Positions 8,719 through 63,249 are shown, counted from the stretch's first letter. The stretch is DNA of 64,000 bases from Candidatus Giovannonibacteria bacterium RIFCSPLOWO2_02_FULL_45_28 (GCA_001780725.1 MFIM01000001.1:19642-83641), one strand, 5' to 3'. Translations and numbers: made by a program. The notes: generated by a model from the sequence alone, not told the origin.

Positions 8719-9834
8719 ATGCGCATCTTAGCCATTGAAACATCCTGCGATGAAACGGCGATTGCTATATTAGAAGTTAGAAGTGGAAAATTTGAAGTTA
8801 GAAGCAATGTTGTTTTGTCGCAGATAAAAACTCATAAGCCGTTTGGAGGAGTGGTGCCGAATTTGGCGATGAGGGAGCATCGGAAAAATCTGCCGATTAT
8901 TTTAAAACGGGTGCTGAAAGAAGCCAAGCTTCCACTTGGAAGCTTGGCTTCTAAGTTGGACGCAATCGCAGTAACATACGGCCCCGGGTTGGAGCCGGCG
9001 CTCTGGGAAGGAATTAATTTCGCGAAGGATTTGGCGAAAAAATGGCGGGTGCCGCTGGTTGGAGTAAATCACTTAGAAGGACATATTTACGCGAGTTGGC
9101 TCGGTGGCGAGCCGCCAAAATTCCCCATTCTCGCCCTCATCGTCTCCGGAGGGCACACAGAGCTTGTTTTAATGAAAAAACATCTTAACTACAAAATTTT
9201 GGGAGAAACGCGCGACGACGCCGCTGGTGAGGCGTTTGACAAAGTTGCGCGGATGCTCGGATTAGGTTACCCGGGCGGTCCTCAAATTGCGCGTCTCGCG
9301 CAATTTGCGCAGAAACGCGCAGAACAAACGCAGAAAGACGCCGAAAAATTTCTGCGCAATTCAGCATCAAGTCCGCGTGTGTCTGCGCGGGAGCTTCGGC
9401 TCCCGAGGCCAATGATCAATTCAAAAGATTTAAACTTTTCTTTTTCCGGCCTCAAAACCGCCGTTCTTTACTATCTTCGCGACCATCCTTACGTGAACAA
9501 GGCGGAGGTGGCTTATGAATTTCAACAAGCCACGGTTGATGTTTTAGTCAAAAAAACCGCCGATGCATTACGGCTCTATGGCGGCGGTCTCCGCCGTATG
9601 GCGATTAAATCTCTAGTAGTCGGCGGCGGCGTGGCAGCGAATCAAGCCTTACGCCGTACGTTGGACGCTTTAATCAAAAACTCATTCCCCAAAATCTCAC
9701 CTCACATCTCCCCTCTCTGGCTTACGGGCGACAACGCAGCGATGATTGCAGTCGCTGGGTATTTTAAAACAAGAGCTCGAAAATTCTCAAAACCCGAAAC
9801 CCTAAAAGCCAAAGGCAATTTGAAGTTGGGTTAA
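8719..9834 (+). CDS. tsaD: tRNA N6-adenosine threonylcarbamoyltransferase TsaD (Kae1/YgjD family)
   Basis: MRILAIETSCDETAIAILE..., GGVAANQALR; contains in-frame mini-repeat EVRSGKFEVRS. Confidence 0.9.
   Translation: MRILAIETSCDETAIAILEVRSGKFEVRSNVVLSQIKTHKPFGGVVPNLAMREHRKNLPIILKRVLKEAKLPLGSLASKLDAIAVTYGPGLEPALWEGINFAKDLAKKWRVPLVGVNHLEGHIYASWLGGEPPKFPILALIVSGGHTELVLMKKHLNYKILGETRDDAAGEAFDKVARMLGLGYPGGPQIARLAQFAQKRAEQTQKDAEKFLRNSASSPRVSARELRLPRPMINSKDLNFSFSGLKTAVLYYLRDHPYVNKAEVAYEFQQATVDVLVKKTADALRLYGGGLRRMAIKSLVVGGGVAANQALRRTLDALIKNSFPKISPHISPLWLTGDNAAMIAVAGYFKTRARKFSKPETLKAKGNLKLG
8772..8805. repeat. GAAGTTAGAAGT-type mini-repeat inserted in frame in tsaD
   Basis: tagaagttagaagtggaaaatttgaagttagaagc encodes LEVRSGKFEVRS; related copies in ileS (25911-25943), tpiA (63065-63108) and the DHH gene (59887-59925) in either orientation. 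Confidence 0.6.
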
Positions 9835-9854
9835 AAAAATGCGAAAATTGCCGT

Positions 9855-11963
9855 ATGCCGTCCGAATTTGACAAGCCATACGACCCGAAAGAACATGAGG
9901 ATAAAATTTATAAGCTCTGGGAAGAGAGCGGATTTTTTAATCCCGATAAGCTCCCTGGTGGGCGGGGTAAAACATTTTCTATAACATTAGCCCCTCCAAA
10001 TGTTACCGGATCGCTTCATGTGGGACACGCTCTTGAGCACGCAACATCTGATGTTTTGATAAGATTTAAAAGAATGCAGGGCTATAAAACTCTTTGGCTT
10101 CCGGGAACCGATCACGCGGGAATCGCGACTCAAAATGTTGTGGAAAAAGAGCTCAAAAAGCAAGGTATTTCTCGCCATGACTTGGGACGCGAAAAATTTT
10201 TGGAGAAAGTCTGGGAATGGAAAAAAAAATACGGAAATATAATTTTGGATCAGATGAAAAAAATCGGGGCTTCTTGTGATTGGACAAGGACGCGGTTTAC
10301 TATGGATCCAGAATATCAAGAAGCCGTAAAAGAAGCTTTTTTGCATTATTACAAAAAGGGCTGGATATACCAAGGCGAGCGCGTTGTTAATTGGTGCATA
10401 AAAGATCAAACATCTTTATCCGACTTGGAATTGGAATATCAAGAAGAAAAAGGCAAATTGTGGTTCATTAAATATCCGCTAAAAAATTCCAAGGAATTTA
10501 TCATCATCGCGACGACCCGCCCCGAAACAATGCTAGGAGACACGGCGGTCGCCGTAAACCCAAAAGACAAACGCTATAAAAATTTAGTCGGCAAAAAAGT
10601 TTTGCTGCCGATACAAAACCGCGAAATCCCGATAATTTCGGATCGGAGGATAGAAATGAACTTTGGAACCGGTGCCGTTAAAGTAACTCCCGCGCATGAT
10701 ATGCTAGACGAACAAATCGGCGCTGACAACAAACTTCCTGCTCTGCAAGTAATTAATGAGATTGGCAAGATGACTTCCGCGGCCGGCCAAAAATTTGAGG
10801 GAATGAAGATGCTTGAGGCCAGAGAAGCGGTATTGAAAGAACTCGAGTCGCAAAATTTAATAGAAAAAATAGATGACTATCCGCACAACATAGCCAAATG
10901 TTACCGTTGCGAAACACACATTGAGCCGCTTCGCTCAAAGCAGTGGTTTTTAAAAATGGAGGAACTCGCCAAACTGGCGATAAAAGCAGTCAAATCCGGA
11001 AAAATAAAATTTCATCCAAAGCGCTGGGAAAAAATTTATTTTGATTGGCTGAAAAATATTAAAGATTGGTGCGTATCACGCCAAATTTGGTGGGGGCACA
11101 AAATACCGTTGGACGGCGTGGACGATGTTTTAGACACATGGTTTTCTTCCGCGCTTTGGCCCTTTGTTACATTGGGTTGGCCCGCCTCCGCTAAAACTTT
11201 GGCGGGTAAATCTAAAAAAAACGATTTAGAAACATTTTATCCGACAGATATTCTTACAAACGACCGCGGAATAATTAATTTATGGGACGCCAGAATGATT
11301 TTTTCCGGCTTAGAATTTATAGGCGCTCCCCCTTTTAAAGATCTTTTGATACATGCGACCATTTTGACAAAAGACGGAAAGCGCATGTCAAAATCTCTCG
11401 GAACAGGCATTGACCCTGTGGATTTGATAACTAAATACGGCGCCGATGCCACGCGCTTCGGGTTAATTTGGCAAGCCATGGGCGGGCAAGACATTCATTG
11501 GTCGGAGGAGCATGTTGTTGCGGGGCGTAAATTTTGCAATAAGATATGGAATGCGGCTAGGTTTGTGTTGCAACAAACTCCGCCCGGGAAGAAGTCCGAC
11601 TTCGGGACCCCAAAGAAGTCGGACTTCGAGGAGGGTGGGAATTCAAAACTCGGTTTTGATTATGCAAGCTCCGCGGATAAAAAAATCCTTGCCCAACTCA
11701 AAAAAACCAAAAAAGACATCGGCCGCCTCATTGATAAATACGAATTCGGCCAGGCCTTGCATACACTTTACAATTTTGTCTGGCACGATTTTTGTGATAT
11801 TTATCTGGAAGAATCAAAGAAAAATTTAAATGCCGAGGTTTTAGCTTCTGTCCTCGCAGAATCGCTCAAAATGCTCCATCCTTTTATGCCTTTTATTAGC
11901 GAAACAATCTGGGGGCATATTAACAATAAAAATATTTTAATGATTGAATCATGGGCATCCTGA
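9855..11963 (+). CDS. valS: valyl-tRNA synthetase, short form lacking the C-terminal coiled-coil domain
   Basis: PPNVTGSLHVGHALEH (HIGH), WLPGTDHAGIATQ, KMSKSLGT; 702 aa; ends right after the HPFMPFISETIWG helix. Confidence 0.85.
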   Translation: MPSEFDKPYDPKEHEDKIYKLWEESGFFNPDKLPGGRGKTFSITLAPPNVTGSLHVGHALEHATSDVLIRFKRMQGYKTLWLPGTDHAGIATQNVVEKELKKQGISRHDLGREKFLEKVWEWKKKYGNIILDQMKKIGASCDWTRTRFTMDPEYQEAVKEAFLHYYKKGWIYQGERVVNWCIKDQTSLSDLELEYQEEKGKLWFIKYPLKNSKEFIIIATTRPETMLGDTAVAVNPKDKRYKNLVGKKVLLPIQNREIPIISDRRIEMNFGTGAVKVTPAHDMLDEQIGADNKLPALQVINEIGKMTSAAGQKFEGMKMLEAREAVLKELESQNLIEKIDDYPHNIAKCYRCETHIEPLRSKQWFLKMEELAKLAIKAVKSGKIKFHPKRWEKIYFDWLKNIKDWCVSRQIWWGHKIPLDGVDDVLDTWFSSALWPFVTLGWPASAKTLAGKSKKNDLETFYPTDILTNDRGIINLWDARMIFSGLEFIGAPPFKDLLIHATILTKDGKRMSKSLGTGIDPVDLITKYGADATRFGLIWQAMGGQDIHWSEEHVVAGRKFCNKIWNAARFVLQQTPPGKKSDFGTPKKSDFEEGGNSKLGFDYASSADKKILAQLKKTKKDIGRLIDKYEFGQALHTLYNFVWHDFCDIYLEESKKNLNAEVLASVLAESLKMLHPFMPFISETIWGHINNKNILMIESWAS
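11591..11629. repeat. two 13-bp palindromes GAAGTC(C/G)GACTTC inserted in frame in valS
   Basis: gaagtccgacttc ... gaagtcggacttc encode KKSDFGTPKKSDFEE; the same element pair occurs in ileS at 26287-26320. Confidence 0.7.
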
Positions 11964-12670: not shown

Positions 12671-12679
12671 TTAATAAGC

Positions 12680-25078: not shown

Positions 25079-28000
25079 TTAGAAATAAATTCGAAATCTA
25101 TCACCAGAAAGCTTTTGAATATCGCTTATATTTGTCTCTTTTTTAATCCTTGCGCTATATTTTTCGAGAACATCCAAAATCTCAGCAGGAGAAGCTTCTA
25201 TTTTGGCTGGCATTTTTTGTTTAGGCGTTAGTCCCGCTTCTTTTCTTGCGGCCTGAATTTCGCGGATAAGGTCGCGGAGAATGCCTTCTTCGCGAAGTTC
25301 GGGAGTAATGGTTAAATCAAATTCCACCAACTTATCAGCCAAATTTTGCGAAAAAACAACATTTTTTACATTTATTTCCTCTTTTGCTAATGCCAAATAA
25401 TCAGCCCCCAAATTTTTCCACTGGAATTTATCACTTGCACGCATGGAATTAAGCGGTTGTCTTATTTTTAGATTTTGTTTATGCCTTTCTTCAAGCGCTG
25501 CCGCAACTAAATTTCTGGTTTCGTCCATATTTTCCAGTAATTTTACGTTTTTATTTTTGCTCTTTGCATTTTGTTTTGGCCAATCCTCCAAATGAACACT
25601 TTTGTTAGACGCCGAGCTTCTAACACTTTGATAAATCTTCTCCGCTGTAAACGGGGCGAAAGGTGCCAGGAGTTTTGAAACTTCGCCAAGCAAATACGCC
25701 AAAACCGTGCCTGTTTCCTTGGCTTCTTTAGAATTTTCTTTCATCACACCGCGAATCCTTCTGATGTACCAATGCGAAATATCATCAACCACAAAATTTT
25801 CCAGCTCGCGCGCCGCGCCAACGATGTCGTAAGCGTCCAGTTTTTTTGTGACAGAGTTGGTTACTTCGGAGAACTTTGCCAAAACCCATTTATTTATTAA
25901 CAATTTCTCACTTCCGATTTCTAACTTCCCACTTCTAACTTTGTACATTTTCCAAAACTGTAAGACATTCCACAAAATCATAAAAAATCTCCGCGAGGCG
26001 TCTTTGATGTCTTCTTCCTTAAAAAGCTTGGAATCCCACGGCTGGTTTATCGTAAAAAAATACCATCTAGTCGCGTCAGCTCCGTACTTTTCTATGAGCA
26101 TCATTGGATCCACCACATTTCCCAAAGATTTGGACATTTTTTTGCCGTTTTTGTCCAAAACATGCCCAAGCGATATTACATTTCTATAAGGAGCGCTTTT
26201 TCCCAAAAGCGTGCCGACAGCCAGGAGATTATAAAACCACCCGCGCGTCTGATCCACCGCTTCGGTAATGTAGTCGGCAGGATAGTGGAAGTCCGACTTC
26301 CTTTCGGAAGTCGGACTTCCAAGAAACGACCAATGCGCGCTCGCAAACGGCATCGCTCCCGAGTCAAACCAAACGTCAACAACCTCCGAAACTCTCCGCA
26401 TTTCGCCTCCGCAACCACATCGGAGTCTTATTTCATCAATAAAAGGTTTATGCAAATCCAGAACAAGATTTTCGTCGCGCGGAATCTGAGAAAAAATCAG
26501 CTCTTCAAATTCGGCCGTCACTAAAAAATCTTTTCCGCGGCGCAATTTTTCTTCCATGGATTCCTCGTTGTTTTTTCCTTCCGCCGCCGTCCAAAGCATC
26601 CAAATAGGATATTCGTGGCTTATTATCAAGATAGTTTTGTTTTGATAGCGCAATTCCATTTCAGAAATCGCAGAGAAAATGCGGTTTTTTAACTGAGTTA
26701 AGGTTTCCCCTTCCGGCGGAGCCTTAGTAAATTTTTCAATCGGATTTTTATAAAAAGCGTGGTAGCGCGCCGGATCTCCTTCGGAAAAAATGCCGGTGTT
26801 GATTTCGGAAAGTCTTGGGTCAAGCTTGATGTTTAATAAAGAAACCCCCGACACTTCTCCAATTATTTCCGCCGTTTCTTTGGTCCTTAAAAACGGCGAT
26901 GCGAAAATTAAATCGGGCTTCCCGCCAGAGACGGGTCCGCCTATGGCGGATATTTTTTTCTTCAAAAGCCTAGCGCTTTTTTCCACCTGTTTTCTGCCAT
27001 TTGCTGTAAGATGATAGTGGTTTTTTGCAAGATTGCTGTTGGTGATATTTTTTACATTTGTTTCCGCCTCCCCGTGCCTCATAAAAATATATCTGTTGCC
27101 GGACGCAGTCGAGCGTTTTTTCAGCTCCTCCACTGAACCGATGGCCTCCCATTTTTTGCATTTTTCGCATTTCCAAACCGGCAACGGAGTACCCCAAAAC
27201 CGCTCGCGTGAAAACGCCCAGTTCTTTTTTTCTTTGAGCCATTCGCCCATCCGGCCGTTCTTGATGTGTTCCGGATACCAATTTATTTTTTGATTATTTT
27301 CTAAAAGCTCGGGCCGCACCGCGTTCACATCCACCCACCACGCCTTGCGAGCAAGATACATCAGGGGCGTTTTGCACCTCCAACAAAAAGGATAGTCGTG
27401 TTCGTAACTTTCGGTTTTAAATAAAAATCCTCGCGATTTTAGGTCATCAATAATTTGTTGGTTCGCATTTTTCCCGCCGGAGGCGGGTCCGCCTTTGGCG
27501 GAAAACCACTCGCCGTCCCAAGGATTTCCCGGTGTTTGCATCAGCCCGCGCTCGCTGGTTGTGGCAAGTACCGGCAAATCGTATTTTTTGGAGAGCTGAA
27601 AATCGTCATCTCCAAAAGCCGGCGCGATATGCACAATTCCAGTCCCCTCCTCGGTTGAAACAAAATCTCCGGCAACTACTTTGTACGGAGCGTTGTGCGA
27701 ATAAAGCGGCTCATATTTTAAATCAACCAGCTCACTACCCTTAATTTTTTTTAAAATTTTACAGTCTCCGCCGACAACGCTCGCTCTTGATTCGGCCAGT
27801 ATTAATTTTTCACCTCCCACCTCCAACACCACATATCCAATTTTTTGATTCACCGCTAAAGCAACATTTCCGGGCAAAGTCCAGGGAGTAGTCGTCCAGA
27901 CGAGGAAATAAGTTTTTTCTGGAATTTTTCCGCCAGAGGCGGACCCGCCTTTGGCGGAAAATTTCACATAAACCGATTCCTCTTTTACTTTTTCGTATCC

Positions 28001-28612
28001 CTGCGCAAGTTCGTGCGAAGAGAGTGCGGTGCCGCACCTCGCGCACCATGGGACAACTTTATAGTCTTCGTATAAATATTTTTTCTTGGCGAATTCTTTG
28101 ATAACCCACCAAAGAGATTCAATATAAGAATTTTCATAGGTAATATAGGGATGTGCCATATCTATCCAAAAACCCATCCGCGCCGTCAACTTCTCCCATA
28201 GCTCTTTATATTTCCAAACCGACTCTCGGCATTTTTTATTGAACGCGGCGACACCGTATTTTTCTATGTCTTTTTTGTTTTTAAGCCCCAGAGTTTTTTC
28301 TACCTCAACTTCAACCGGAAGCCCGTGAGTATCCCACCCCGCGCGGCGCGGCGCGTAATATCCCCTCATTGTTTTGTATCTTAAAACAACATCCTTGAAA
28401 GCGCGGCTCTCAACATGATGCACACCCGGAACACCGTTAGCCGTCGGCGGTCCCTCAAAAAAGACAAAGTGGTTTTGTTTACCCCTCGAAGCTTTAGCGA
28501 AGTAGGGCTTCCTTTGGTTTACCGACTTCTCAAAAGCCTTATTTTTTTTCCAAAATTCCAAAATTTCTTTCTCATCAAACATATGAAAATAGTAGCAAAA
28601 AAAGCCGCTCAT
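25079..28612 (-). CDS. ileS: isoleucyl-tRNA synthetase carrying extra insertions: a histidine-phosphatase-like domain, three palindromic mini-elements and two GAAGTC palindromes
   Basis: PPTANGVPGVHHVESRAFKDV, GWDTHGLPVE, KMSKSLGN; 1177 aa; insertion ...YIFMRHGEAETNVKN...ISHEYPI between the CEKCKKWE zinc region and DLHKPFIDEI. Confidence 0.9.
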   Translation of the reverse strand: MSGFFCYYFHMFDEKEILEFWKKNKAFEKSVNQRKPYFAKASRGKQNHFVFFEGPPTANGVPGVHHVESRAFKDVVLRYKTMRGYYAPRRAGWDTHGLPVEVEVEKTLGLKNKKDIEKYGVAAFNKKCRESVWKYKELWEKLTARMGFWIDMAHPYITYENSYIESLWWVIKEFAKKKYLYEDYKVVPWCARCGTALSSHELAQGYEKVKEESVYVKFSAKGGSASGGKIPEKTYFLVWTTTPWTLPGNVALAVNQKIGYVVLEVGGEKLILAESRASVVGGDCKILKKIKGSELVDLKYEPLYSHNAPYKVVAGDFVSTEEGTGIVHIAPAFGDDDFQLSKKYDLPVLATTSERGLMQTPGNPWDGEWFSAKGGPASGGKNANQQIIDDLKSRGFLFKTESYEHDYPFCWRCKTPLMYLARKAWWVDVNAVRPELLENNQKINWYPEHIKNGRMGEWLKEKKNWAFSRERFWGTPLPVWKCEKCKKWEAIGSVEELKKRSTASGNRYIFMRHGEAETNVKNITNSNLAKNHYHLTANGRKQVEKSARLLKKKISAIGGPVSGGKPDLIFASPFLRTKETAEIIGEVSGVSLLNIKLDPRLSEINTGIFSEGDPARYHAFYKNPIEKFTKAPPEGETLTQLKNRIFSAISEMELRYQNKTILIISHEYPIWMLWTAAEGKNNEESMEEKLRRGKDFLVTAEFEELIFSQIPRDENLVLDLHKPFIDEIRLRCGCGGEMRRVSEVVDVWFDSGAMPFASAHWSFLGSPTSERKSDFHYPADYITEAVDQTRGWFYNLLAVGTLLGKSAPYRNVISLGHVLDKNGKKMSKSLGNVVDPMMLIEKYGADATRWYFFTINQPWDSKLFKEEDIKDASRRFFMILWNVLQFWKMYKVRSGKLEIGSEKLLINKWVLAKFSEVTNSVTKKLDAYDIVGAARELENFVVDDISHWYIRRIRGVMKENSKEAKETGTVLAYLLGEVSKLLAPFAPFTAEKIYQSVRSSASNKSVHLEDWPKQNAKSKNKNVKLLENMDETRNLVAAALEERHKQNLKIRQPLNSMRASDKFQWKNLGADYLALAKEEINVKNVVFSQNLADKLVEFDLTITPELREEGILRDLIREIQAARKEAGLTPKQKMPAKIEASPAEILDVLEKYSARIKKETNISDIQKLSGDRFRIYF
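26919..26950. repeat. palindromic mini-element copy A in ileS
   Basis: ttcccgccagagacgggtccgcctatggcgga; in frame, encodes SAIGGPVSGGKP. Confidence 0.75.
27469..27507. repeat. palindromic mini-element copy B in ileS
   Basis: ttttcccgccggaggcgggtccgcctttggcggaaaa; encodes FSAKGGPASGGKN. Confidence 0.75.
27926..27962. repeat. palindromic mini-element copy C in ileS
   Basis: tttttccgccagaggcggacccgcctttggcggaaaa; two hairpins CCGCC-AGA-GGCGG and CCGCC-TTT-GGCGG; encodes FSAKGGSASGGKI. Confidence 0.75.
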
Positions 28613-33437: not shown

Positions 33438-33471
33438 GTCTGCCCAAACTCTAGCACCGAAGAAAATAATT

Positions 33472-33807: not shown

Positions 33808-34117
33808 ACACTAACTTATTTCATGAAGCCAGAGATTTCGCAATCCTCATTTTTAATTGCCTTAGTGCGGTTGCTCGCAGTTTAAGGTTGTGTTCTCTGT
33901 GTCTGGCTTCTCGGTCATTGTTATATGCTTCATATTATACCAATTTAAGTGGCCTTTTATATTTTGTTGATGTAACTTTTCCAGCATTATGTTCTGAAAA
34001 ACGCTTTTTAAGATCGTTGGTTGACCCTATATATAACTCTCCATTTTTGTCTTTGAGTATATACATGTAGAACATAATGTGTGAAATAAGTTAGTGTGGG
34101 GGTAAACCCCCTACATT

Positions 34118-41272: not shown

Positions 41273-42903
41273 TCAAAACAATGAACTTTGTGCTGGCGCT
41301 TTCGGAATTGTTTCTTCTGCTTTAACGTTTTCAATACTTTTTAATAATTCCGGCCCGCCTCTATTTGCGTCTAGCAAGGCGGGTAGTTTTTTGAAATCAT
41401 TTTCCAATTCTTTTAAAACTTGGGTTGAGCGGAGGGCGGCGGCGGGGTGATACAAAGGATAAATAATTTTGGATTTAATAATTACCCCCTTCCCGTGGCC
41501 AAGCGAAATCTTTGCCGACGGTAAAAAATAGTTCATTGAAAACCTCCCCAAAGTCGCGATAATTTTGGGGTCAATAATTTGAATTTGTTTTTTCAAATAA
41601 GGTTTGTACGCCTCAATCTCCTCCGGCAAAGGATCGCGATTTTCCGGAGGACGGCGCTTTACAATATTTGTGATATACACGCTCTCTCTTGGCCATTTGA
41701 TACCCGCCAAAAGTTTATCCAGAAGTTTTCCCGCCTGCCCGACAAAAGGACGCGAGAGCTTGTCCTCATGAAACCCCGGCGCCTCACCGATAAATATTAT
41801 CTCCGCGTCCGGCCTCCCCTCCCCAAAAACCAAATTCGCCGTCCCAAGAAGCGGCAAACTCTTATCCGCCTCCATTTCTTTTTTTAATTTTTCTAATTCT
41901 TCTGCTTTACTCATTTTATTTAAAATTTTTTGCTTGATTTCAAAAGCGTTACAATGTTTCAAAATTCCTAAGTAAGACTGCAAGTTTTTGGCGTTAACTT
42001 TCTTTAATATTCTCCTTTTTGTCTTCGTTCTTAAAACTCTGTGGTATGGTAAAACAACGTAGCCCAAAAAGTCAACCCCTTGCCGTAATTTTTTAAGTAT
42101 AACTTTGTTGGGATGCAGATTCAACTTTAGTCTTTCCCGCAAAAACTCCGCGACTTCAGGCAGAAGCACCTTGAGATAATTTTCGTTTTGGTGCAGTATT
42201 ATAAAGTCGTCAGTGTATCTGAAATAATGCTTAACATTTAATTTATGTTTAACAAACTGGTCAAACTCGTTCAAATAGATATTAGCGAAAAGCTGGGAGG
42301 TAAGATTACCGATCGGAAGACCACATTTACTCTCTCTCTCTCTCTCGGTGTTTTGAGCTGAAAACTGTCAATAATTTCCTCGCAAAGCCACATGGCTTTT
42401 CTGTCTTTAATTCTTCGCGCCAAAATGTTTTTCAGTATTCGTTGGTCAACCGAATCAAAGAACTTTCTTATGTCGCATTTCAACGCAAAACATGGGCCGG
42501 AGTAATTATGGCTTACTTTTCTTGCGGCTTTTTCCAGCGCCGCTACACCTTTATGCGTTCCCTTGCCGATTCTGCAGGAAAAAGAATTGGCAATAAAGGT
42601 CGGCTCAAAAATGAGGTTAAGAACCTTAAAAACCGCGTGATGCAAGACCCTGTCGCGAACAGCGGCTTTGTGAATATGCCTTATCTTAGGGTCGTGAATA
42701 TAGAAAGAGGTGTAAGAATTATGTTTGTAAGTCATTTCCGCAAGCTGGCGATGGAGTTCAAAAAGATTGTCTTCCAGATTAAATTCAAATTCTTGAACGT
42801 CGGCATTATCCTTTTTCCCTAGTTTAAATTTTTTCCACGCTGAAAATAAATTATTTAAATCAATAATTTGTTCGAATATATGTTTATCGCTTCTCTCACT
42901 CAT
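41273..42903 (-). CDS. DGR-type reverse transcriptase fused to a C-terminal family-4 uracil-DNA glycosylase domain; reading frame broken at a (CT)n microsatellite near 42330-42346
   Basis: ORF 42903-42271: FEQIIDLNNLFSAWKKF, NSFSCRIGKGTHKGV, CDIRKFFDSVD (RT motifs 1-3). Next frame: GLPIGNLTSQLFANIYLNEFDQF, YFRYTDDFIIL (YxDD), VDFLGYVV. Then GEGRPDAEIIFIGEAPG...VYITNIVKRRPPENR...YHPAAALR (UDG family-4 motifs). Confidence 0.8.
42330..42346. repeat. (CT)7-8 dinucleotide microsatellite at the RT frameshift site
   Basis: ttta ctctctctctctctc ggtg; read as RERERE in the upstream RT frame. Confidence 0.8.
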
Positions 42904-50242: not shown

Positions 50243-50410
50243 TTAAATATTCTCTTTTTGAAATTCTAATTTAAGCTCGTTTTTCAGAAACAACGCAATT
50301 ATCGGCAAAAGTTCCTTGAGATAACTCTCGTTTTGGTGCAAGATAATAAAGTCGTCCGTGTATCTAAAATAATGCTTAACTTTTAATTTGTGTTTAATAA
50401 ACTGGTCAAG
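50243..50410 (-). pseudogene. remnant of a second DGR-type reverse transcriptase (motif 5 region only)
   Basis: Reverse strand encodes DQFIKHKLKVKHYFRYTDDFIILHQNESYLKELLPIIALFLKNELKLEFQKENI-stop; about 85% nucleotide identity to 42160-42265 of the RT gene; no upstream RT motifs. Confidence 0.7.
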
Positions 50411-51361: not shown

Positions 51362-51419
51362 AATATATCCATTTTAGCATAGCCAATATATAAATCAATG
51401 CATAAAATAATATACTAAA

Positions 51420-51488
51420 TCTCCGCACTCTAGCCGTATTTTGGGGCGCGCGCATCAATCCCCAAATAGTCGCGTAGTTTTTGGACGA
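51420..51488. repeat. direct repeat (copy 1) flanking the vapBC cassette
   Basis: ctctagccgtattttggggcgcgcgcatcaatccccaaatagtcgcgtagtttttggacgag matches 52182-52250 (3 mismatches); that copy is the 3' end of the beta-CASP gene. Confidence 0.8.
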
Positions 51489-51508
51489 GGGCCCAAAACA
51501 GCGCGGCT

Positions 51509-52175: not shown

Positions 52176-53516
52176 TCAAATCTCTACACTCTCGCCGTAT
52201 TTTGGGGCGCGCGCATCAATCCCCAGATAGTCGCGGAGTTTTTGGACGAGAGCCAATGATGATTTCGGTTCGCCGTGGGTTGTGTAAATTTTTTTAAGAG
52301 TGTCGGATTTTTCGCGGACAAACTCCAAAAGCATCGCGTAGTCTGGATGCGCGGAATATCCATAGATGGTTTCTTTGCGGCAGCGAACCGGAATTTTTTC
52401 TCCGAAAATTGTAACTTCGTCCGCTCCATCCTGAATCCTTCTCCCCAAAGAAGCCGGCGACTGGTAGCCGATAAATAAAATTGTGCTTTTTGGGTCCTGC
52501 AAGTGCCTGCGTTCGTGATGCAAAATCCTCCCGCCGGTAGACATTCCGCTCCCAGCAATAATAATCTTGGGCGGCGGCGCGTCATTTATTTTTTTGGATT
52601 CTTCGGTCGTCAAAGCCACGTGAACTTGCGGGAAATTTAAAAAAGAAAAAGACCTTTTATCAACATAGGCCTTGTTGAGATAAGAATAATATTTTTGATA
52701 AACTTCTGTTGCGCGGATGGCCAGCGGGCTATCCAAAAAAATCTGCACATTGGGAACCTGTTTTTTCCGCAGCATATCGGAAATTTCCCAAAGAAGTTCC
52801 TGCGTTTTTTCCAAAGAAAACGCAGGAATCATGAGCACGCCGCCCTGTACGACGCTTTGTTCTATCACCCTTTCCAATTTTAATTTTTTCTCTTCAACAT
52901 CTTCATGTTCGCGGTCGCCGTAAGTTGATTCCAGCACCAAAACCTCCGCCCCCGCGACTTTTTCAAAGCCGTTAAGCAACGGGTTAGCCGGGTTGCCCAA
53001 ATCTCCGGTGAATAATATTTTCTTTCCGCTCGCCTCAACCAAAACCATTGCTGATCCCAAAATGTGGCCGGCGTCATAAAACACAACCTTGAAATCCCCG
53101 ACATTAACGGATTCGTGGTAATTTTTGCCTTCCCAAACAGACATGACGCGGTCAACATCTTCTTCGGTATACGGGACTTTCTCGTTGTCGCGCTCGGCCT
53201 CTTTTGCCATAACGCTGACGCTGTCTTTCAACATAATCTCCGCTAAATCTTTGGTTGGATTAGTTGAATAAATTTTTCCCGAAAAACCCTCTTTTACAAG
53301 CTTAGGAATTCTACCGGTGTGATCCACGTGCGCATGGGTCACAAAAAGCGCCGACACGCTTTTTGGGTCAAACGGAAATGGATCATGGCTTCGTATGTCG
53401 CAAAACTTCGGACACTGAAAAAGGCCGCAATCAATAAGAATTTTGTCTTTCCCGTTCTCCAGCAAAAAACAGCTTCCGGTAACTTCCTGCGCCGCGCCGA
53501 AAAATGAGAGTTTCAT
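52176..53516 (-). CDS. metallo-beta-lactamase / beta-CASP ribonuclease (RNase J / CPSF-like)
   Basis: FLLENGKDKILIDCGL...VTHAHVDHTG (HxHxDH), 446 aa with beta-CASP region. Confidence 0.7.
   Translation of the reverse strand: MKLSFFGAAQEVTGSCFLLENGKDKILIDCGLFQCPKFCDIRSHDPFPFDPKSVSALFVTHAHVDHTGRIPKLVKEGFSGKIYSTNPTKDLAEIMLKDSVSVMAKEAERDNEKVPYTEEDVDRVMSVWEGKNYHESVNVGDFKVVFYDAGHILGSAMVLVEASGKKILFTGDLGNPANPLLNGFEKVAGAEVLVLESTYGDREHEDVEEKKLKLERVIEQSVVQGGVLMIPAFSLEKTQELLWEISDMLRKKQVPNVQIFLDSPLAIRATEVYQKYYSYLNKAYVDKRSFSFLNFPQVHVALTTEESKKINDAPPPKIIIAGSGMSTGGRILHHERRHLQDPKSTILFIGYQSPASLGRRIQDGADEVTIFGEKIPVRCRKETIYGYSAHPDYAMLLEFVREKSDTLKKIYTTHGEPKSSLALVQKLRDYLGIDARAPKYGESVEI
52182..52250. repeat. direct repeat (copy 2), part of beta-CASP gene 3' end
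   Basis: See 51420-51488. Confidence 0.8.
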
Positions 53517-56496: not shown

Positions 56497-57399
56497 TTAC
56501 TTCCAAATCAAACTGCCGTTGCGGATTTCTAGAGTTATTGTGCCGTCCAAATCTGTGCGAAAAATTTGGGCGCCTGCGGAGGCAAGGCGCGAAAGAACTT
56601 CCTGCGCCGGATGTCCATAGCGATTGCGCGCGCCGGAAGAGATTATTGCGTATTCTGGCTTTGTCACACGCAAGAAAAAATCGTTGCTGGAAGTTTTGGA
56701 GCCGTGGTGGCCGGTTTTTAAAACATCAACATCTCCGACTCTCCCCTCCTCCACCAAACGCTTTTCCAAATTTTTCTCGGCATCCGACATAAAAAGAATT
56801 TTTTTGTCTTCAAAATCCAATTCACCAACCAAAGCCGAATCGTGCACATTTTTTAGCGTCATCCCAACAAAAGATTCTTCCGGGTAAATGAATTTCAAAA
56901 CCGCCCCGTTCGCAAAATTTAAATTAATCGGATGGTCAACTGTGACCTTTTTCAATTTTTTCTCCGCAACCAAGCTTTCAAAAATTTTTGCCTCCGCCGT
57001 ATGATAATCAACACCGCTTTCAATAATCATCCCAATATTATACCGCCCCAGAACCTCAATCAGTCCCGAGACGTGGTCGGCGTGCGGATGAGTAAGCACA
57101 ACAACGTCAATAAATCTGTCAAAAAAAGACATCCGGCTCCCTAAATTTGGCAAAATTCTATTAGGCGGACCCCCATCAATTAAAATTTGTGTTCCGTCTT
57201 TTGATTCCACAAAAATTGAATCGCCTTGCCAAACGTCAAAAAAAGAAACTTCCAGATCCGGTTTTTGAACGTAATCAAAAACTCTGTACCCAACCAAAAA
57301 AAACAAAGCGAGAAGCAAAAACGCAGCTCCGCCAAATATTTTTCTTTGGTGGATTTTATAAAATTTATATATTGAACTTTGAGAAAAATTCCACGACAT
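56497..57399 (-). CDS. comEC: ComEC C-terminal metallo-beta-lactamase domain protein (separate ORF)
   Basis: DVWQGDSIFVESKDGTQILIDGG...VVVLTHPHADHVSGL; N-terminal TM. Confidence 0.7.
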   Translation of the reverse strand: MSWNFSQSSIYKFYKIHQRKIFGGAAFLLLALFFLVGYRVFDYVQKPDLEVSFFDVWQGDSIFVESKDGTQILIDGGPPNRILPNLGSRMSFFDRFIDVVVLTHPHADHVSGLIEVLGRYNIGMIIESGVDYHTAEAKIFESLVAEKKLKKVTVDHPINLNFANGAVLKFIYPEESFVGMTLKNVHDSALVGELDFEDKKILFMSDAEKNLEKRLVEEGRVGDVDVLKTGHHGSKTSSNDFFLRVTKPEYAIISSGARNRYGHPAQEVLSRLASAGAQIFRTDLDGTITLEIRNGSLIWK

Positions 57400-58792
57400 A
57401 AATTTGATAAGAAATTATAACGAAACTTGCGGCAGATATCATGATTCCAAGCGCCGGAGATACAAACGCCGCAATGCCGCCCAAAAAACTAAAAAGCATT
57501 ACCGCCGGGACGGCGGTCACAACCAAAATATTCGCCGGCAGAGCAAAAACCGAAACAGAATTTCCCCAAAAAATCAGAAACGGTAAAACGAAAATTTGCG
57601 CCGCGGCTGAAGCCGCCGCCGCCTCACGCATCCCCCAAAATTTTGGCAAAAACCAAAAAAACTTCTGGAAGAGCGAGGCAAGTAAAATCAGCCCCAAGGT
57701 TGCCGCAAAAGAGAGCTGAAAACCCCGATCAAACCTCAAATACATCGGATTTATAAAAACCATGAGAGCCGCAGCGAGCACAAGCGAAAGTAGGGGCGCG
57801 CGCAGCCGCCCCGTCCTTAACGCCAAAAGTCCGACAACCGCCATAATCGCCGCTCGCACAGCAGCCGGCTCCGCACCGGTCATTAAAGTAAAAAAGATAA
57901 TACCCACAATAGACAGGGTCCATGCAAACGTGTACGGCAAAATAAAACCAAAAAACGCTAGAAGAAATGTGCCGACAATTGTGATGTTGTAGCCGGAAAG
58001 CACCAAAATATGAATTGTGCTCGTTTTTCTGAAAGCATCCAATAAATCTTGCGGCAAAACGCCTCCTGCTCCCAAAAGCATGCCGTTGGCCAAAGATGCG
58101 TGCGGCTCCGGCAAAATAAGTTTGAGATTTTGCTCGAATTTTTCCCTTACACGAAAAAGAGAAACCAAAATTTTGTTCTTCGTCGGTACCAGAATACCTC
58201 TCCCCCAAAAAAGAGACAGTGTCTCTTTCTTTTCCCCCTCCCCTTCGTAAGGGGAGGGTGTTGGGAGGTGGGGTATCTCCTTAATTTCCGGGAAAAGCAT
58301 TTGCGAATAAATCAGGTCCTTTGCCAAATATTTTTTTACATCAAAATCGCCGTAATTTTCCGGCTCTAATATCTCGCCAGCCACTTCCAGCCTCTCTCCG
58401 TATCTGTACTGCGGATAAATTCGACTCACAACTAAAAGCCGCCCGAATTCTGTTTCCAAAACTATGCGCGACGAGTTTTGCTTTATTTCGCTTGAGATAA
58501 CAGTACCGCGCAAAACAATCGCCTCGCCATAGCGGTTGTGAAGTTGGTCATCTACAACCTTGTTTTCAAAAACCGAAAAACGGAACAGGCCGATGAGAAA
58601 AAAGATAAGAAAAAATAATACGGAGAAAAACCGGTGAGGTGTCAATCTTGCTCTAAAAAACAAAGCAACTAAAAATCCGGTGGCGACACCCAATCCTCCC
58701 AATATCCACTTTTCCGGCACATTAAAAAACGAGCGGATACCGACTCCCGCCAAAAATGCGACCAAAAAATATGGTGTATATTTTATTGCCAC
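57365..58792 (-). CDS. comEC: ComEC/Rec2 competence channel, membrane (DUF4131 plus Competence domain) part
   Basis: Multi-TM; TIHILVLSGYNITIVG competence-domain motif; overlaps the downstream MBL-domain ORF by 35 nt. Confidence 0.7.
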   Translation of the reverse strand: MAIKYTPYFLVAFLAGVGIRSFFNVPEKWILGGLGVATGFLVALFFRARLTPHRFFSVLFFLIFFLIGLFRFSVFENKVVDDQLHNRYGEAIVLRGTVISSEIKQNSSRIVLETEFGRLLVVSRIYPQYRYGERLEVAGEILEPENYGDFDVKKYLAKDLIYSQMLFPEIKEIPHLPTPSPYEGEGEKKETLSLFWGRGILVPTKNKILVSLFRVREKFEQNLKLILPEPHASLANGMLLGAGGVLPQDLLDAFRKTSTIHILVLSGYNITIVGTFLLAFFGFILPYTFAWTLSIVGIIFFTLMTGAEPAAVRAAIMAVVGLLALRTGRLRAPLLSLVLAAALMVFINPMYLRFDRGFQLSFAATLGLILLASLFQKFFWFLPKFWGMREAAAASAAAQIFVLPFLIFWGNSVSVFALPANILVVTAVPAVMLFSFLGGIAAFVSPALGIMISAASFVIISYQIYVVEFFSKFNI

Positions 58793-59235
58793 AGCCGGCC
58801 TTGGTCGGAGTCCAGCGCGGCGTTCACCAATCTGTCAGCGGCGCGATTGTTCTCTCTCCGAACATGGCTGAACGTTACCTTAGCAAAATCCATCTTAAGA
58901 TTCCATACCGCAATAAAAAGCGGGAACATTCTTTCTTCCTCAATTTTGTATTTTCCATTAAGCTGGCTGGCGACAAACTCCGAATCCATCCGCATTTCCA
59001 CCTCCATTTTTTTTGTTTTTTCTTTTCCGAAAAGCGCTTTTATCTTTTTTAGCGCAAAAATCACCGCTTCGTATTCAGCTTCATTGTTTGTTTTTGTGCC
59101 GATCTTCTCTCCGTATTCTTTAATCATCCGCTCTCCCGCATCGCAAATAACCACCCCGATCCCCGCCGGCCCCGGATTTCCACGAGATCCCCCGTCCGTA
59201 TAGACAATTAATTTTTCTAATTTTTCTTTAGACAT
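58783..59235 (-). CDS. rnhA: ribonuclease HI
   Basis: IVYTDGGSRGNPGPAGIGVV...NNEAEYEAVIFAL...NNRAADRLVN. Confidence 0.85.
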   Translation of the reverse strand: MSKEKLEKLIVYTDGGSRGNPGPAGIGVVICDAGERMIKEYGEKIGTKTNNEAEYEAVIFALKKIKALFGKEKTKKMEVEMRMDSEFVASQLNGKYKIEEERMFPLFIAVWNLKMDFAKVTFSHVRRENNRAADRLVNAALDSDQGRLWQ

Positions 59236-60235
59236 GTTTATTTAAATAATCTGCTATATTCAATGCCTCGCGCAAGGCGTCGTTTTTTTTTGTAAAAGCC
59301 GCGCTCCCCGCGACAGAATGCCCTCCTCCGCCGTATTTTTTTTCTAAATATTGACCGATGCGCGGATGCCTTGGCGGATTCCATGGGTTTTGGCCGACGC
59401 TTAAAACATGTTTATTGCCACGTTTCAAAATTCTTACGGAATATTTAGATTGCGGATAGAAATAATAAGAAGCGAATCTTGCGCCGGCCAAGCGCTTGTT
59501 CATTCCGTAAAGAATGGTCACCTTCCCGCGTAAAACCAAATGCTTTTTAATTTCCGGCATAGATTTTTTAAAATCCCGTTTGTGTTTCAAAAATCTGATT
59601 CGGACGGGTTTTAATTTATCAATAAAAATCATTGATTTTTCACTTAACGCTTTAATCAGCAACTTCGCGTAAGACAGCGATGGTTTTTTATCAACAAATG
59701 ATTTTGCGATTCTCAATGCGGCCTGTTGAAAACCCATAGCTTCCCGCGCATTTTTAAACCTGGCCCTATCAATTATATCAGCCCATTTCGCCAATTCTTT
59801 TATGTGTTTCGGCGCTTTTATCTCGAAGTTTTTTGTAAAATGGCGAAAAATGAGTCCCGTGCATGACGGACTTTTTGTATCTAAAATTTTGAAGTTTGAA
59901 GTCAGAAGTTTGATGTCAGATGCTTTGAAATCTTTTTCCCACCTTTTATCAATAAAAGTCGTCGGGTGGTGATCAAACCAGATTTTTGCTCTTGGGTGAT
60001 AAGTGATATCAACAACAGCGCTTGGGCTTTTCATCTTTAATTTTCTCCACCATTTTTTATTTACAGGGTGAGTAAGCGGAATAAATTTTCCGTAACTATC
60101 GCCCCGCAATTTCAGAAAATGCGAAAGCGTCGCGGCGGACGCCGCCCCATCAAAACAATTCCCGTGAAAATAGATGTCGTATTTCATCTCAAATACCCGA
60201 CTTGTTTCAGCCAATAATCGTTTTCCCATTCCCAA
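59228..60235 (-). CDS. DHH-family phosphoesterase-like protein
   Basis: FHGNCFDGAASAA...WFDHHPTT; contains in-frame LLTSNFKIL mini-repeat. Confidence 0.45.
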   Translation of the reverse strand: MGMGKRLLAETSRVFEMKYDIYFHGNCFDGAASAATLSHFLKLRGDSYGKFIPLTHPVNKKWWRKLKMKSPSAVVDITYHPRAKIWFDHHPTTFIDKRWEKDFKASDIKLLTSNFKILDTKSPSCTGLIFRHFTKNFEIKAPKHIKELAKWADIIDRARFKNAREAMGFQQAALRIAKSFVDKKPSLSYAKLLIKALSEKSMIFIDKLKPVRIRFLKHKRDFKKSMPEIKKHLVLRGKVTILYGMNKRLAGARFASYYFYPQSKYSVRILKRGNKHVLSVGQNPWNPPRHPRIGQYLEKKYGGGGHSVAGSAAFTKKNDALREALNIADYLNKHV

Positions 60236-61372: not shown

Positions 61373-62494
61373 TTATTTTTTCTTCAACGCCTCCCGCCAG
61401 AGGCGAGGCTCGCCACTGAGGGCGGCGATCCCCGGAAGGGTGCCCTTCGCGAGAAATTCCAACATTGCGCCGCCGCCGGTGGAGATAAAATCAAAGTTTT
61501 TCTCCAGTTTGAATTTGCGAATTGCCGCAACAGTATCTCCGCCGCCAACCACCTTAAAAGCTTTTGATTTTCCCAGCTCTTCTGCCAGAGCTTTTGTGCC
61601 GTATGTAAATCCTTTTTCGCAAACGCCGAGCGTGCCGTTCCACAAAACAAATTTCGCTTTTTTTGCCAAATCCGCCAACGTTTTAATGGTTTGCGGCCCG
61701 GCGTCGTAAATCAAATCCCCGTGCTCAATATTGCTAGTTGGAATCAAAGAAACAATTTTCTTTTTTTTACCGCGGAGCAAAACAGCGTCTTCCGGCAACA
61801 AAACCCTACGATTCGTAAGAACATACCGGGATATTTGCACGTCTTCCACGGGCGAACTGCCGACACGGTATCCTTTGTTGGACAAAAACGTATTGCCGAG
61901 CGCGCCACCCACAAAAATAGCGTCTGCGCTAGTCAAAAACCGCGAAATCAGAGGCTCTTTCGTCTCAAATTTTTTTCCGCCCAAAATAAACAGAAACGGG
62001 TGATCGGGTTTAAAAAATTTGGACAGATTTTCCGTCTCTTTTTCAAACAAAAAACCGGCTTCATGCGGCAAAAGCTCAGGCAGAAGAACAATAGAAGCGT
62101 GTTTTCTGTGCGATGCGGAAAAAGCGTCGTTGACATAATAGTCGCCCCAAGCCGCGAGAGTTTTAGCGAAACTCAAATCACAAGCTTTCTCGCCAGGATT
62201 TAAACGGATGTTGTCAAAGAGAACAACGCGCTCGGCAAACTCAAGAGGTTTTGGCGGCAGCTTGCCTTGCACGAAACCCACCCGCAATCCCAGCAACCCC
62301 TCCAACAAGCTTCTCGCCTCGTTGAGATGCGGCGCATTACCGTTTTCCTCCAAATGCGCAATTAAAAAAACTTGCGCGCCCTTCTTCAGCCAATACACAA
62401 TTGTCGGCAAAGAAGCGCGGACGCGAAAATCATCCGCAATTTTGCCGTTTTTGAGCGGAACATTAAAATCCACCCTTAAAAGGACTTTCTTCAT
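61373..62494 (-). CDS. pgk: phosphoglycerate kinase
   Basis: MKKVLLRVDFNVP...; C-terminal tail SGEPRLWREALKKK beyond the usual end. Confidence 0.9.
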   Translation of the reverse strand: MKKVLLRVDFNVPLKNGKIADDFRVRASLPTIVYWLKKGAQVFLIAHLEENGNAPHLNEARSLLEGLLGLRVGFVQGKLPPKPLEFAERVVLFDNIRLNPGEKACDLSFAKTLAAWGDYYVNDAFSASHRKHASIVLLPELLPHEAGFLFEKETENLSKFFKPDHPFLFILGGKKFETKEPLISRFLTSADAIFVGGALGNTFLSNKGYRVGSSPVEDVQISRYVLTNRRVLLPEDAVLLRGKKKKIVSLIPTSNIEHGDLIYDAGPQTIKTLADLAKKAKFVLWNGTLGVCEKGFTYGTKALAEELGKSKAFKVVGGGDTVAAIRKFKLEKNFDFISTGGGAMLEFLAKGTLPGIAALSGEPRLWREALKKK

Positions 62495-63249
62495 GTCGCG
62501 CCAACTTCTTCTACTATCTTTACAAAACTTTTAGCATTTAAGCTAGCCCCGCCAACCAAAAGCCCGTCCACCATCCCCCTGCCCACAAATTCCGCCGCGT
62601 TCTCCGCGGTCACAGAGCCGCCATAGAGAATCGGCACTTTTGAAGCAATTTTTTTTCCGAACATTTTGTAAAGCTCGCGGCGCAGAAGAATAGACATCTC
62701 ATAAACGTCTTTCGGCGTGTCTGCCTTACCGGTGCCGATAGCCCAAACCGGCTCATAGGCAATAATCAAATTTTTAATCAAAGATTTTTTAATTTTTCTT
62801 AAGCCTTCATGAAGTTCGTCACGGATTATTTTAGGAAACACGATTTCGCGCTCCTTTTCTTTTTCTCCGACGCACAACACCGCTTTCAGCCCACCCCCTA
62901 ACGCGGCGTTTAATTTTTTGTGCACAACTTCGTTGCTTTCTCCCAATGCCCGCCTTTCAGAATGCCCAACAATGACCAATTTTACGCCGGACGCTTTAAG
63001 CTGTAACGCAGAAATTTCTCCAGTGTAAGCCCCTCCCTTTTCCCAAAATGTATCTTGAGCGCCGAGTTTGAAGTTAGAAGTTGGAAGTTTGAAATTAGAA
63101 AGAAGCGGCAAATAAACAAAAGGCGGAGCAAGTACAATCTCAACATTCTTTGCTTTTCTAAGCCCGCGCCCCACAAAATGGGCCAGACGCGAAGCGTCTC
63201 GCTGGCTTCCCGGATTCATCTTCCAGTTTGCTATTATCAGCTTCTTCAT
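62491..63249 (-). CDS. tpiA: triosephosphate isomerase (with in-frame mini-repeat insertion)
   Basis: MKKLIIANWKMN, VIVGHSERR, IAYEPVWAIGTG; inserted LLSNFKLPTSNFKLG. Confidence 0.9.
   Translation of the reverse strand: MKKLIIANWKMNPGSQRDASRLAHFVGRGLRKAKNVEIVLAPPFVYLPLLSNFKLPTSNFKLGAQDTFWEKGGAYTGEISALQLKASGVKLVIVGHSERRALGESNEVVHKKLNAALGGGLKAVLCVGEKEKEREIVFPKIIRDELHEGLRKIKKSLIKNLIIAYEPVWAIGTGKADTPKDVYEMSILLRRELYKMFGKKIASKVPILYGGSVTAENAAEFVGRGMVDGLLVGGASLNAKSFVKIVEEVGAT

Follow-up and report, generated by a model that had tools for sequence, protein, structure and literature searches.

How do short palindromic and tandem repeats come to lie, in frame, inside the essential genes of a bacterium, and do they owe their presence to events in the DNA or to selection on the encoded protein? 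The question is raised by a 64,000-nucleotide stretch of Candidatus Giovannonibacteria bacterium RIFCSPLOWO2_02_FULL_45_28 (GCA_001780725.1, MFIM01000001.1:19642-83641), all of which is called the window below. In it such repeats occupy tsaD, the aminoacyl-tRNA synthetase (aaRS) genes valS, ileS and argS, comEC, tpiA and a DHH-like open reading frame (ORF). The host is an ultra-small groundwater bacterium of a reduced-genome lineage within the Candidate Phyla Radiation (CPR); the window is identical in sequence to contig MFIC01000024, which belongs to a Candidatus Giovannonibacteria metagenome-assembled genome (MAG; Parcubacteria, Rifle aquifer), and near-identical contigs are present in several NCBI, JGI and ENA assemblies. 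An earlier note on this DNA had described five repeat families, A to E, and had likened them to the selfish Rickettsia palindromic elements (RPEs). The repeats measure 30–60 bases and are either hairpin-forming or 7-base-periodic. We consider it probable, at roughly 0.6, that their origin is mixed but lies at the DNA level, in tiny non-autonomous hairpin elements, template switching and slippage, with selection leaving only what falls in tolerant loops.

All five families are present where they had been reported, inside ORFs and with the frame kept, and lie far above shuffle expectation. Compared with dinucleotide shuffles, the family A half-site CCGCCN3GGCGG occurs 5 times in the window (mean of 100 shuffles, 0.07), GAAGTCSGACTTC of family B 4 times (0), GAAGTNNGAAGT of family C, counted on both strands, 6 times (about 0.08), GAAnnnn x4 7 times (mean 0.025) and the perfect palindrome xxxxTC[C/G]GAxxxx 7 times (0.94). 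Perfect hairpins with a stem of at least 9 bp number 12, the majority intragenic, against 2.4 in shuffles. The palindromes listed earlier are real, but the list missed two in tsaD (8919-8952 and 9283-9405) and two in argS (31663-31701 and 31513-31571). Folded as single-stranded DNA, A, B and the tsaD 8919-8952 palindrome reach -13.6 to -19.6 kcal/mol (z -2.6 to -8.4), and the heptamers of C and D do not fold. Rfam 15 at gathering score reports only a transfer-messenger RNA (tmRNA), a LOOT RNA and two tRNAs in the window, none of them at a repeat copy. Judged by their orthologues, the repeats sort into three classes: copy-paste double hairpins (A, B and E); palindromes made in place from native codons (the argS palindrome assigned to family D and tsaD 8919-8952); and non-folding 7-nt-periodic direct repeats (family C and the D heptamers). 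In ileS and argS, nearly all indels of at least 4 amino acids between the window and three related loci (L007, L008 and L009) are palindromic DNA. The expectation that alignments would place insertions exactly at the repeats holds for A, B, E and the D heptamers, each missing from some close orthologues at just that point, but not for C in tsaD and ileS or for the argS palindrome, where there is no net insert.

Family A is an exact 30-nt insert made of two 15-nt hairpins, TCCGCC-NRA-GGCGGA and TCCGCC-TYY-GGCGGA, the second approximately the reverse complement of the first. The consensus of 127 copies sets it between (T)TTT and AAA(A), with a T-rich codon before it and an A-rich codon after, and its commonest peptide is S-A-x-G-G-S-A-x-G-G. 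On the coding strand the ileS copies take the form TCC GCC AAA/ATA GGC GGN YCC GCC/GTC TCY GGC GGN. The three copies described for this gene are all there, but the peptide (F/S)AKGG(S/P)ASGGK attributed to each does not fit the copy with a stem mismatch, which encodes ISAIGGPVSGGK. At copy 2 the closest orthologue (L009, 73% identity) has an empty site, TGG TTT^AAG AAG (a caret marks the insertion point), and Thermus thermophilus IleRS (1ILE) has a clean 10-residue gap opposite the copy; the palindrome is present there in L007 and L008, which are more distant than L009. Among 24 aligned orthologues, copies 1 and 3 were found in the window lineage only. Orthologues read KKKI-KPDL at copy 1 (site ATA^AAG), and copy 3, which folds at -16.4 kcal/mol (z -6.2), is missing from 24 of 24, whose loop is occupied by other repeat-like inserts. 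Filled and empty ileS sites (TTT^30 nt^AAA vs TTT^AAG) differ without target-site duplication. At two other independent insertion sites, one in a tpiA gene and one in a tsaD gene, the flanks are TTC^AAA and CTT^GAA, respectively; in the tpiA of P0301 a copy lies at F^K, in the loop where the tpiA of the window bears family C.

The same 30 nt recur far outside this lineage. A scan of one genome per GTDB species with a degenerate pattern found at least 119 loci, grouped here by deposited taxon labels. Among the matches listed, 65 belong to CPR, 16 to Kiritimatiellae, Lentisphaerae, Verrucomicrobiota and Planctomycetes (the PVC group), 11 to Omnitrophota, 8 to 'Gammaproteobacteria', 4 to Bacteroidota or Ignavibacteria, 2 to Auribacterota and 1 each to Desulfotomaculaceae and Dehalococcoidia, with 11 unclassified; locus GC runs from 0.30 to 0.66 and carrier contigs reach 1.65 Mb. 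The host ORFs match 147 Pfam families, including FemAB, GT2, Mur ligases, LigA, UvrD, UvrC, PheRS-beta and aaRS, and two Omnitrophota genes align to solved GH57 and TrpE structures with a gap opposite the copy. About 60% of copies (80 of 130) lie inside ORFs of at least 150 amino acids. Copies occur in three reading frames and in intergenic DNA: S-A-x-G-G is read in 86 of the 130, PPxADPP in 23 and RQRR in 20, and in the longer ORFs S-A-x-G-G-S-A-x-G-G in 65, PPxADPPxAE in 9 and RQRRIRLRR in 7. This bias would fit a TTT^AAA-type target, with TTT AAA giving the first frame and xxT TTA AAx the second; the third is presumably rare because the target in that frame would hold a TAA stop. Orientation is undefined, since A is itself palindromic. 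A phage vector was rejected, 2.9 million viral contigs giving a single match; in 7.3 Gb of plasmids there was only one partial match at chance level, and in E. coli genomes none.

Family B is built like A: a hairpin unit of 13–15 nt is followed, after a spacer, by its reverse complement, in inserts of 34–37 nt. Orthologous copies of the valS element lie in L131 and L130, and the short orthologue L132 has none; in L130 both units have changed from GAAGTC-C-GACTTC to GAAACC-T-GGTTTY, which makes four compensated pairs. A foreign locus (L098) carries the same element as valS with a similar spacer, and the ileS copy is shared at the DNA level with L009 only. Other palindromic units recur in ileS and argS indels (GACGTC-C-GACGTC, AACATC-C-GATGTT, GGCGGTC-C-GACCGCC and, within the CxxC knuckle of L008 IleRS, TCCGCC-AGCT-GGCGGA), and the argS unit at 31513-31571 recurs in the tsaD genes of L204 and L214. 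Across B-type elements the centres (TC-S-GA) and the GGATCCCAAAA-like spacer are conserved while the stems vary. Inserts of family E span 48–57 nt. Its argS copy is a clean 16-amino-acid insertion compared with L009, the comEC segment sits between the Pfam domains DUF4131 and Competence, and E-type hairpins with the same tail as in comEC are found in L042, L063, L070 and L114. Direct evidence of copy-paste comes from one foreign tsaD gene, two loops of which each hold a 57-nt E copy, the pair being about 93% identical.

IleRS itself shows further peculiarities. At about residues 505-700 it holds an internal histidine-phosphatase domain (PF00300, RHGE motif), also present in all 120 listed Parcubacteria orthologues, which gives it the look of a conserved domain inserted into an aaRS. 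The CxxC zinc knuckle of the IleRS of L008 (P0025), P0007 and P0027 contains ATCCGCCAGCTGGCGGAT, a single-hairpin relative of family A that is read as PPAGG and turns the knuckle into Cx6C. The cluster member P0127 resembles a P0005-type orthologue (without A copy 3) over its first ~310 residues and is identical to the window over the remainder; this mosaic is either a recombinant or a chimeric assembly.

The palindromes of the second class have another history. The earlier note took the argS D palindrome for an insertion, but it encodes the conserved ArgRS motif AARCYSILR in native codons, with no length change, and is no insert; the segment is palindromic in the window and L009 and not in L007 or L008. 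In tsaD the right arm of 8919-8952 repeats the native left arm in inverted orientation, because short orthologues hold only EEAKI-KK. Its 16-bp stem is perfect in four orthologues, with 7 of the 16 pairs changed on both sides and none on one side only; 98.4% of the cells in the alignment are paired, a value reached by 0 of 500 shuffles. Pairing is strictly Watson-Crick, with no G.U, and the palindrome is missing in L132. In the AlphaFold2 (AF2) model the insert is coil, with a predicted local distance difference test (pLDDT) score of ~60. Loop 3 of tsaD (9283-9405) is a ~25-amino-acid insert compared with P0145, with a stem compensated in L132, pLDDT of 49-68 and a UUCG-type loop. Such compensated changes, which keep complementarity, are not predicted by a simple 'insert and decay' selfish model. 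The argS and tsaD 8919-8952 palindromes arose in place, by inverted duplication or arm homogenisation, rather than by transposition. Elsewhere, the tsaD of L148 (~2552-3652 of its locus) contains a 59-nt perfect palindrome with a 29-bp stem inside the CPR gene.

Generality was assessed in 83 tsaD genes, namely that of the window, those of three orthologue loci and those of 79 metagenome loci, mostly of other CPR lineages. Among the matches listed the metagenome relatives are mostly distant (45–52% identity), so the survey was used for a palindrome-in-insert statistic and not for fine covariation. Stems of at least 12 bp overlap 15.1% of the 119 insert segments of at least 4 amino acids, compared with 1.1% of length-matched core controls; for stems of at least 9 bp the values are 21.8% and 4.1%. 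The inserts cluster at few alignment positions, and in the AF2 model of the window TsaD (pLDDT 81) the palindromic ones are coil or low-confidence segments. Together with the 1ILE comparison, this supports a location of the inserts in variable loops.

In the third class, family C and the D heptamers are direct repeats of 7-nt period and not palindromes; nor is C an insertion in tsaD or ileS. In tsaD its length is equal in several orthologues and the AF2 model gives a native beta-hairpin (strands 12-21 and 24-34, pLDDT 85-88), and in ileS the loop is as long as in orthologues, the same site being a 16-bp-stem palindrome in L009 and a B-type double hairpin in L007. The tpiA copy adds 7 amino acids (one 21-nt unit) compared with short orthologues and 1 residue compared with Thermotoga maritima triosephosphate isomerase (TIM), and has the look of native SNFKL duplicated in tandem over 21 nt. 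Translation of C in either orientation was correctly noted: tsaD and ileS read (E/K)VRSGK(F/L)E.., whereas the peptide in tpiA and the DHH-like ORF is ..TSNFK..; read as its reverse complement, the tpiA copy would give EFEVRSWKFEIRKK. The tsaD copy matches the opposite strand of the tpiA copy over 11 codons of DNA. GAAGTnnGAAGT occurs 6 times in the window, not once in 116 kb of Giovannonibacteria relatives or in 452 kb of other CPR tsaD loci (L133-L212), and is therefore lineage-specific; it occurs once in 849 kb of family-A pattern loci of mixed phyla (L010-L128). The D heptamers form four identical units in the window; L009 has diverged units in a 7-nt GAA phase and L007 has no tract.

Two further observations concern 7-nt tracts. 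The ArgRS cluster member P0140 reads as frameshifted from the GAAATCC tract onwards (519 residues vs 560, by protein comparison only), which would reflect either slippage in a variant of the population or a faulty assembly. In PolX, a family X DNA polymerase with a PHP domain (37685-39478, minus strand), the 7-nt unit TTTCAAT is repeated in tandem 4.3 times at 38183-38212.

Table 1. Host genes and repeats of the window (positions counted from its first nucleotide; carets mark element boundaries).
Feature	Position	Strand	Gene	Details
tsaD	8719-9834	+		PF00814
Family C	8773-8805	+	tsaD	7-nt-periodic direct repeat; peptide EVRSGKFEVRS; native beta-hairpin, no net insertion
Perfect palindrome	8919-8952	+	tsaD	34 nt, 16-bp stem; encodes KEAKLP^LGSLAS
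Composite hairpin insert, loop 3	9283-9405	+	tsaD	11-bp stem; 10-nt tandem units GCGCAGAAAA and complement; GGGAGC-TTCG-GCTCCC
valS	9855-11963	+
Family B double hairpin	11591-11627	+	valS	GAAGTCCGACTTC-GGGACCCCAAA-GAAGTCGGACTTC (KKSDFGTPKKSDF)
ileS	25079-28612	-
Family C array	25901-25942	-	ileS	Six GAAnnnn units (KVRSGKLEIGSEKL); hot-spot loop, length as in orthologues
Family B double hairpin	26287-26320	-	ileS	Peptide GSPTSERKSDF; 16-bp stem, -19.6 kcal/mol, z -8.4
Family A copy 1	26921-26950	-	ileS	Histidine-phosphatase insert domain; one stem mismatch; reads KKI^SAIGGPVSGG^KPDL
Family A copy 2	27473-27502	-	ileS	Reads WF^SAKGGPASGG^K
Family A copy 3	27929-27958	-	ileS	Reads F^SAKGGSASGG^K; loop ahead of WTTTPWT
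argS	30217-31899	-
Family E-like insert	30517-30564	-	argS	KDALSHSPPLITKERW; C-rich/G-rich hairpin; weak fold
Family D heptamer tract	30571-30602	-	argS	GATTTCG x4, GAAATCC x4 on coding strand (KSEIRNPKSEKG); followed by the palindrome
Palindrome (family D)	30601-30626	-	argS	CCGCAAGATGCT-AC-AGCATCTTGCGG (coding strand); 12-bp stem, 2-nt centre
B-type double hairpin	31513-31571	-	argS	GKTSDVCGFQHLMLRR; AACATCCGATGTT ... CAACATCTGATGTTG; 18-aa insert vs L007
B-type hairpin	31663-31701	-	argS	LLRRPTSKSEKTSD; CTTAGACGTC-C-GACGTCTAAG; 10-aa insert vs L009
comEC	57365-58792	-		Pfam DUF4131 aa 28-170, Competence aa 238-473
Inter-domain segment (family E)	58210-58275	-	comEC	E hairpin CCCTCCCCTTCGTAAGGGGAGGG (58236-58258), G-rich tail, second palindrome AAAGAGACAGTGTCTCTTT
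DHH-like ORF	59228-60235	-		Sub-threshold Pfam MYG1, E=0.0098; FDHHP and GGGGH motifs visible
Family C	59885-59920	-	DHH-like ORF	SDIKLLTSNFKI
tpiA	62491-63249	-
Family C	63064-63099	-	tpiA	Opposite-strand reading (SNFKLPTSNFKL)

A mixed origin at the DNA level could work as follows. The double-hairpin mini-elements A and B and the hairpin-plus-tail E would be mobilised in trans and copied and pasted into new sites, with family A landing where a T-rich codon meets an A-rich one (TT^AA). Template switching during replication would produce inverted duplications of adjacent native codons and then homogenise their arms; it is known to create and repair perfect stems (PMC8794818) and to homogenise inverted-repeat arms in coding sequence (PMC8604942). 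The heptamer arrays of C and D would grow and homogenise through slippage or short-tract conversion. Purifying selection would remove copies that break the frame, add a stop or strike structured parts of the protein, and the survivors would lengthen a few tolerant surface loops by whole codons for benign residues (Ser/Ala/Gly, Lys/Ser/Asp); these loops look like hot spots because surviving copies concentrate there. We infer that the copying machinery is supplied in trans, that template switching maintains the stems and that the repeats have no function. A bolder version, which we hold tentatively and at somewhat less than even odds, is that family A, and probably B and E, represents an undescribed class of ultra-small mobile DNA. 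Such an element, a 30-nt double hairpin that codes for nothing, would insert at TT^AA without duplication by means of a trans-acting enzyme common to CPR, Omnitrophota, PVC and other uncultured lineages, cross phyla, stay perfectly palindromic through arm-to-arm conversion and continually remodel surface loops of essential enzymes in reduced genomes.

Several results weigh against this account. The patchy A copy at one ileS site in non-sister orthologues demands that it either was inserted anew at that very site or was lost precisely more than once. No repeat varied in its presence among six near-identical contigs or the members of 90% protein clusters, so current mobility is not shown; the strain differences seen instead are a different start call, the mosaic IleRS P0127 and the frameshifted ArgRS P0140. 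The 80 ORFs adjoining 50 intergenic A copies match 119 Pfam families, and no transposase is among the 25 most frequent. Conservation of the A stems is not evidence, because the search pattern itself fixed them. Among the positions that the pattern left free, A7, A13, T14 and T20 are conserved at 93–98% beside two nearly free loop dinucleotides, which neutral selfish decay does not predict and which could mean constraint; the four variable loop positions do not covary as a long hairpin would, their Watson-Crick pairs being below expectation. Finally, the taxonomy given to some MAG contigs may be mistaken.

Constraint of that kind would be at home in a different explanation, that the hairpins are functional nucleic-acid signals under selection, for example mRNA structures that hold up translation at the borders of folding units or make transcripts more stable, or DNA hairpin or cruciform sites recognised by a protein common to these lineages. 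We regard this as unlikely. The covariation in orthologous copies, the family A positions invariant across phyla outside the stems, the B-type centres and spacer kept while stems vary, and the UUCG-type loop of tsaD would all suit a signal. Template switching alone, however, is able to give compensated changes (PMC8794818), and the best-covarying stem, lacking any G.U pair, is what a DNA palindrome rather than an RNA stem is expected to look like. In addition, copies are patchy in close orthologues at sites that differ by lineage, their hosts are unrelated and their frames several, some are intergenic, and no Rfam family is found at any of them. Template switching also underlies the view that all repeats arise in place, with slippage, on loop codons, the families being convergent through codon constraints and nothing mobile. 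The inverted native arm in tsaD, the native codons of the argS palindrome, the tandem-duplication look of the tpiA copy and the D heptamers homogenised in the window lineage alone fit this. As an explanation of everything it is nevertheless improbable, given identical 30-mers unrelated to their flanks at 119 or more sites in many phyla, the paired 57-nt E copies in one gene, the same B element and spacer in valS and a foreign genome, and the 11-codon match between tsaD and the opposite strand of tpiA.

That the segments are protein-level features, flexible Gly/Ser linkers or beta-hairpins selected for their amino-acid sequence, is suggested by the benign linker SAKGGSASGG of the dominant A frame and by the well-predicted beta-hairpin at the tsaD C copy. 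That the same DNA is read in other frames and on both strands already contradicts this: C DNA encodes unrelated peptides on its two strands, and A is also read as PPKADPPLAE and RQRRIRLRR and is present in intergenic DNA. The closest orthologues, moreover, lack the segments, and we consider the reading very improbable. Artefacts of assembly or sequencing have a negligible chance of explaining the repeats; apart from the P0140 frameshift, which could be an assembly error, none was found, the sequence is identical in independent NCBI, JGI and ENA assemblies with every repeat in frame, and copies also occur in very long contigs (0.7–1.65 Mb) from other studies. DNA uptake sequences, bulge-helix-bulge splicing, CRISPR repeats and terminators were dropped on sequence arguments (low copy density, in-frame bias, no arrays, and the polarity of a T-run before and an A-run after).

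The repeats resemble several known systems in part. They recall RPEs as palindromic repeats lying in frame in unrelated housekeeping genes, adding peptides that fit the host fold and having no transposase of their own; translation is here taken from the intact frames. RPEs are ~150 bp long, fall into about ten families and are confined to Rickettsia (PMC10969869). In place of a length of ~100–150 bp, the window has units of 30–57 nt (30 in A, 34–37 in B, 48–57 in E), and family A differs further by its many phyla, its TT^AA site and its double-hairpin build. The earlier interpretation stands as to families acting at the DNA level (C on both strands, A in three frames and intergenic), while likeness to RPEs, which were compared by description, is by analogy only. 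Repetitive extragenic palindromic (REP) sequences and REPINs are palindromes of 20–40 nt, often inverted doublets forming one long or two short hairpins, some without a dedicated transposase and some intragenic; REPs are mainly extragenic and end in a GTAG or CGTC tag, those with GTAG being linked to REP-associated tyrosine transposase (RAYT) genes (PMC3733652). The 13–15-nt hairpin units of A and B in inverted orientation agree with this build. However, neither the A consensus TTTTCCGCC..GGCGGAAAA nor B GAAGTCSGACTTC bears the tag, CGTC being seen only inside the stem of GACGTC variants; every copy in the window is intragenic, and the 50 intergenic A copies had no RAYT-like neighbour among the 25 most frequent families.

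Miniature inverted-repeat transposable elements have terminal inverted repeats and a target-site duplication and are typically 50–500 bp; the ileS A site shows no duplication and 30 nt is below that range. Mitochondrial double-hairpin elements, reportedly described by Paquin and colleagues in 2000, GC clusters and repetitive hairpin-forming elements are GC-rich two-hairpin units of tens of nucleotides, scattered through AT-rich compact genomes, optional between relatives and regarded as mobile, with no enzyme known to us. They are organellar and lie mostly between genes or in variable rRNA regions. The window repeats share two adjacent short hairpins that are optional between relatives, a likeness of build only and a link by analogy, since their hosts are free bacterial genomes and the units lie in frame in protein genes. 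Cyanobacterial short tandemly repeated repetitive sequences are dispersed intergenic heptanucleotide repeats of 7-nt period, whereas the heptamers of the window lie in frame (a super-period of 21 nt, or 7 amino acids) in 4–6 units, with GAAGTnnGAAGT lineage-specific. Template-switch (quasipalindrome) mutagenesis fits tsaD 8919-8952, the argS palindrome and the valS B element, with their one-step stems, multi-base compensation and arm homogenisation (PMC8794818, PMC8604942, PMC7202029); as a mutational process and not an element family, it leaves identical units at unrelated sites unaccounted for. In the literature on CPR, Patescibacteria, Parcubacteria and Omnitrophota we found no description of such in-frame palindromic or hairpin repeats. 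The surprising parts are the cross-phylum 30-nt element and the compensated coding palindromes.

The window has other repeated or variable features. Directly after a tRNA (1274-1348) lies a strain-variable island (1349-5916), missing in L001 and L004 and partly different in L002, with a large serine recombinase (1311-2849, minus strand), the LOOT RNA (3709-3828) and a NOV_C-domain gene. A 95-nt direct repeat (5842-5936 and 8018-8112, 94% identical), whose first copy spans the right end of the island, brackets a helix-turn-helix gene, a 268-amino-acid ORF and a D12-class (Dam-like) methyltransferase. The tmRNA gene (33471-33807, minus strand; Rfam 94.5 bits) is flanked by a 25-nt inverted repeat (33799-33823 and 34082-34106, 96% complementary). 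Dispersed direct repeats overlapping ORF ends, at 42140-42264 and 50285-50409 (125 nt, 83%) and at 51417-51493 and 52178-52254 (77 nt, 92%), may be paralogous gene ends.

If the proposed mixed origin is true, much of the length variation and many of the 'low-complexity' loops in CPR proteins would be a by-product of events in the DNA and not adaptation. Annotation and structure prediction would gain a rule by which such segments can be told, and the repeats would amount to a natural catalogue of loops that tolerate insertion in enzymes such as aaRS, TsaD and TIM. With its 30 nt and its TT^AA site, family A would be a sharply defined substrate for finding a putative hairpin-handling recombinase or repair pathway common to several uncultured phyla. 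Similarly, the compensated coding palindromes would offer a clean natural test case for template-switch mutagenesis.

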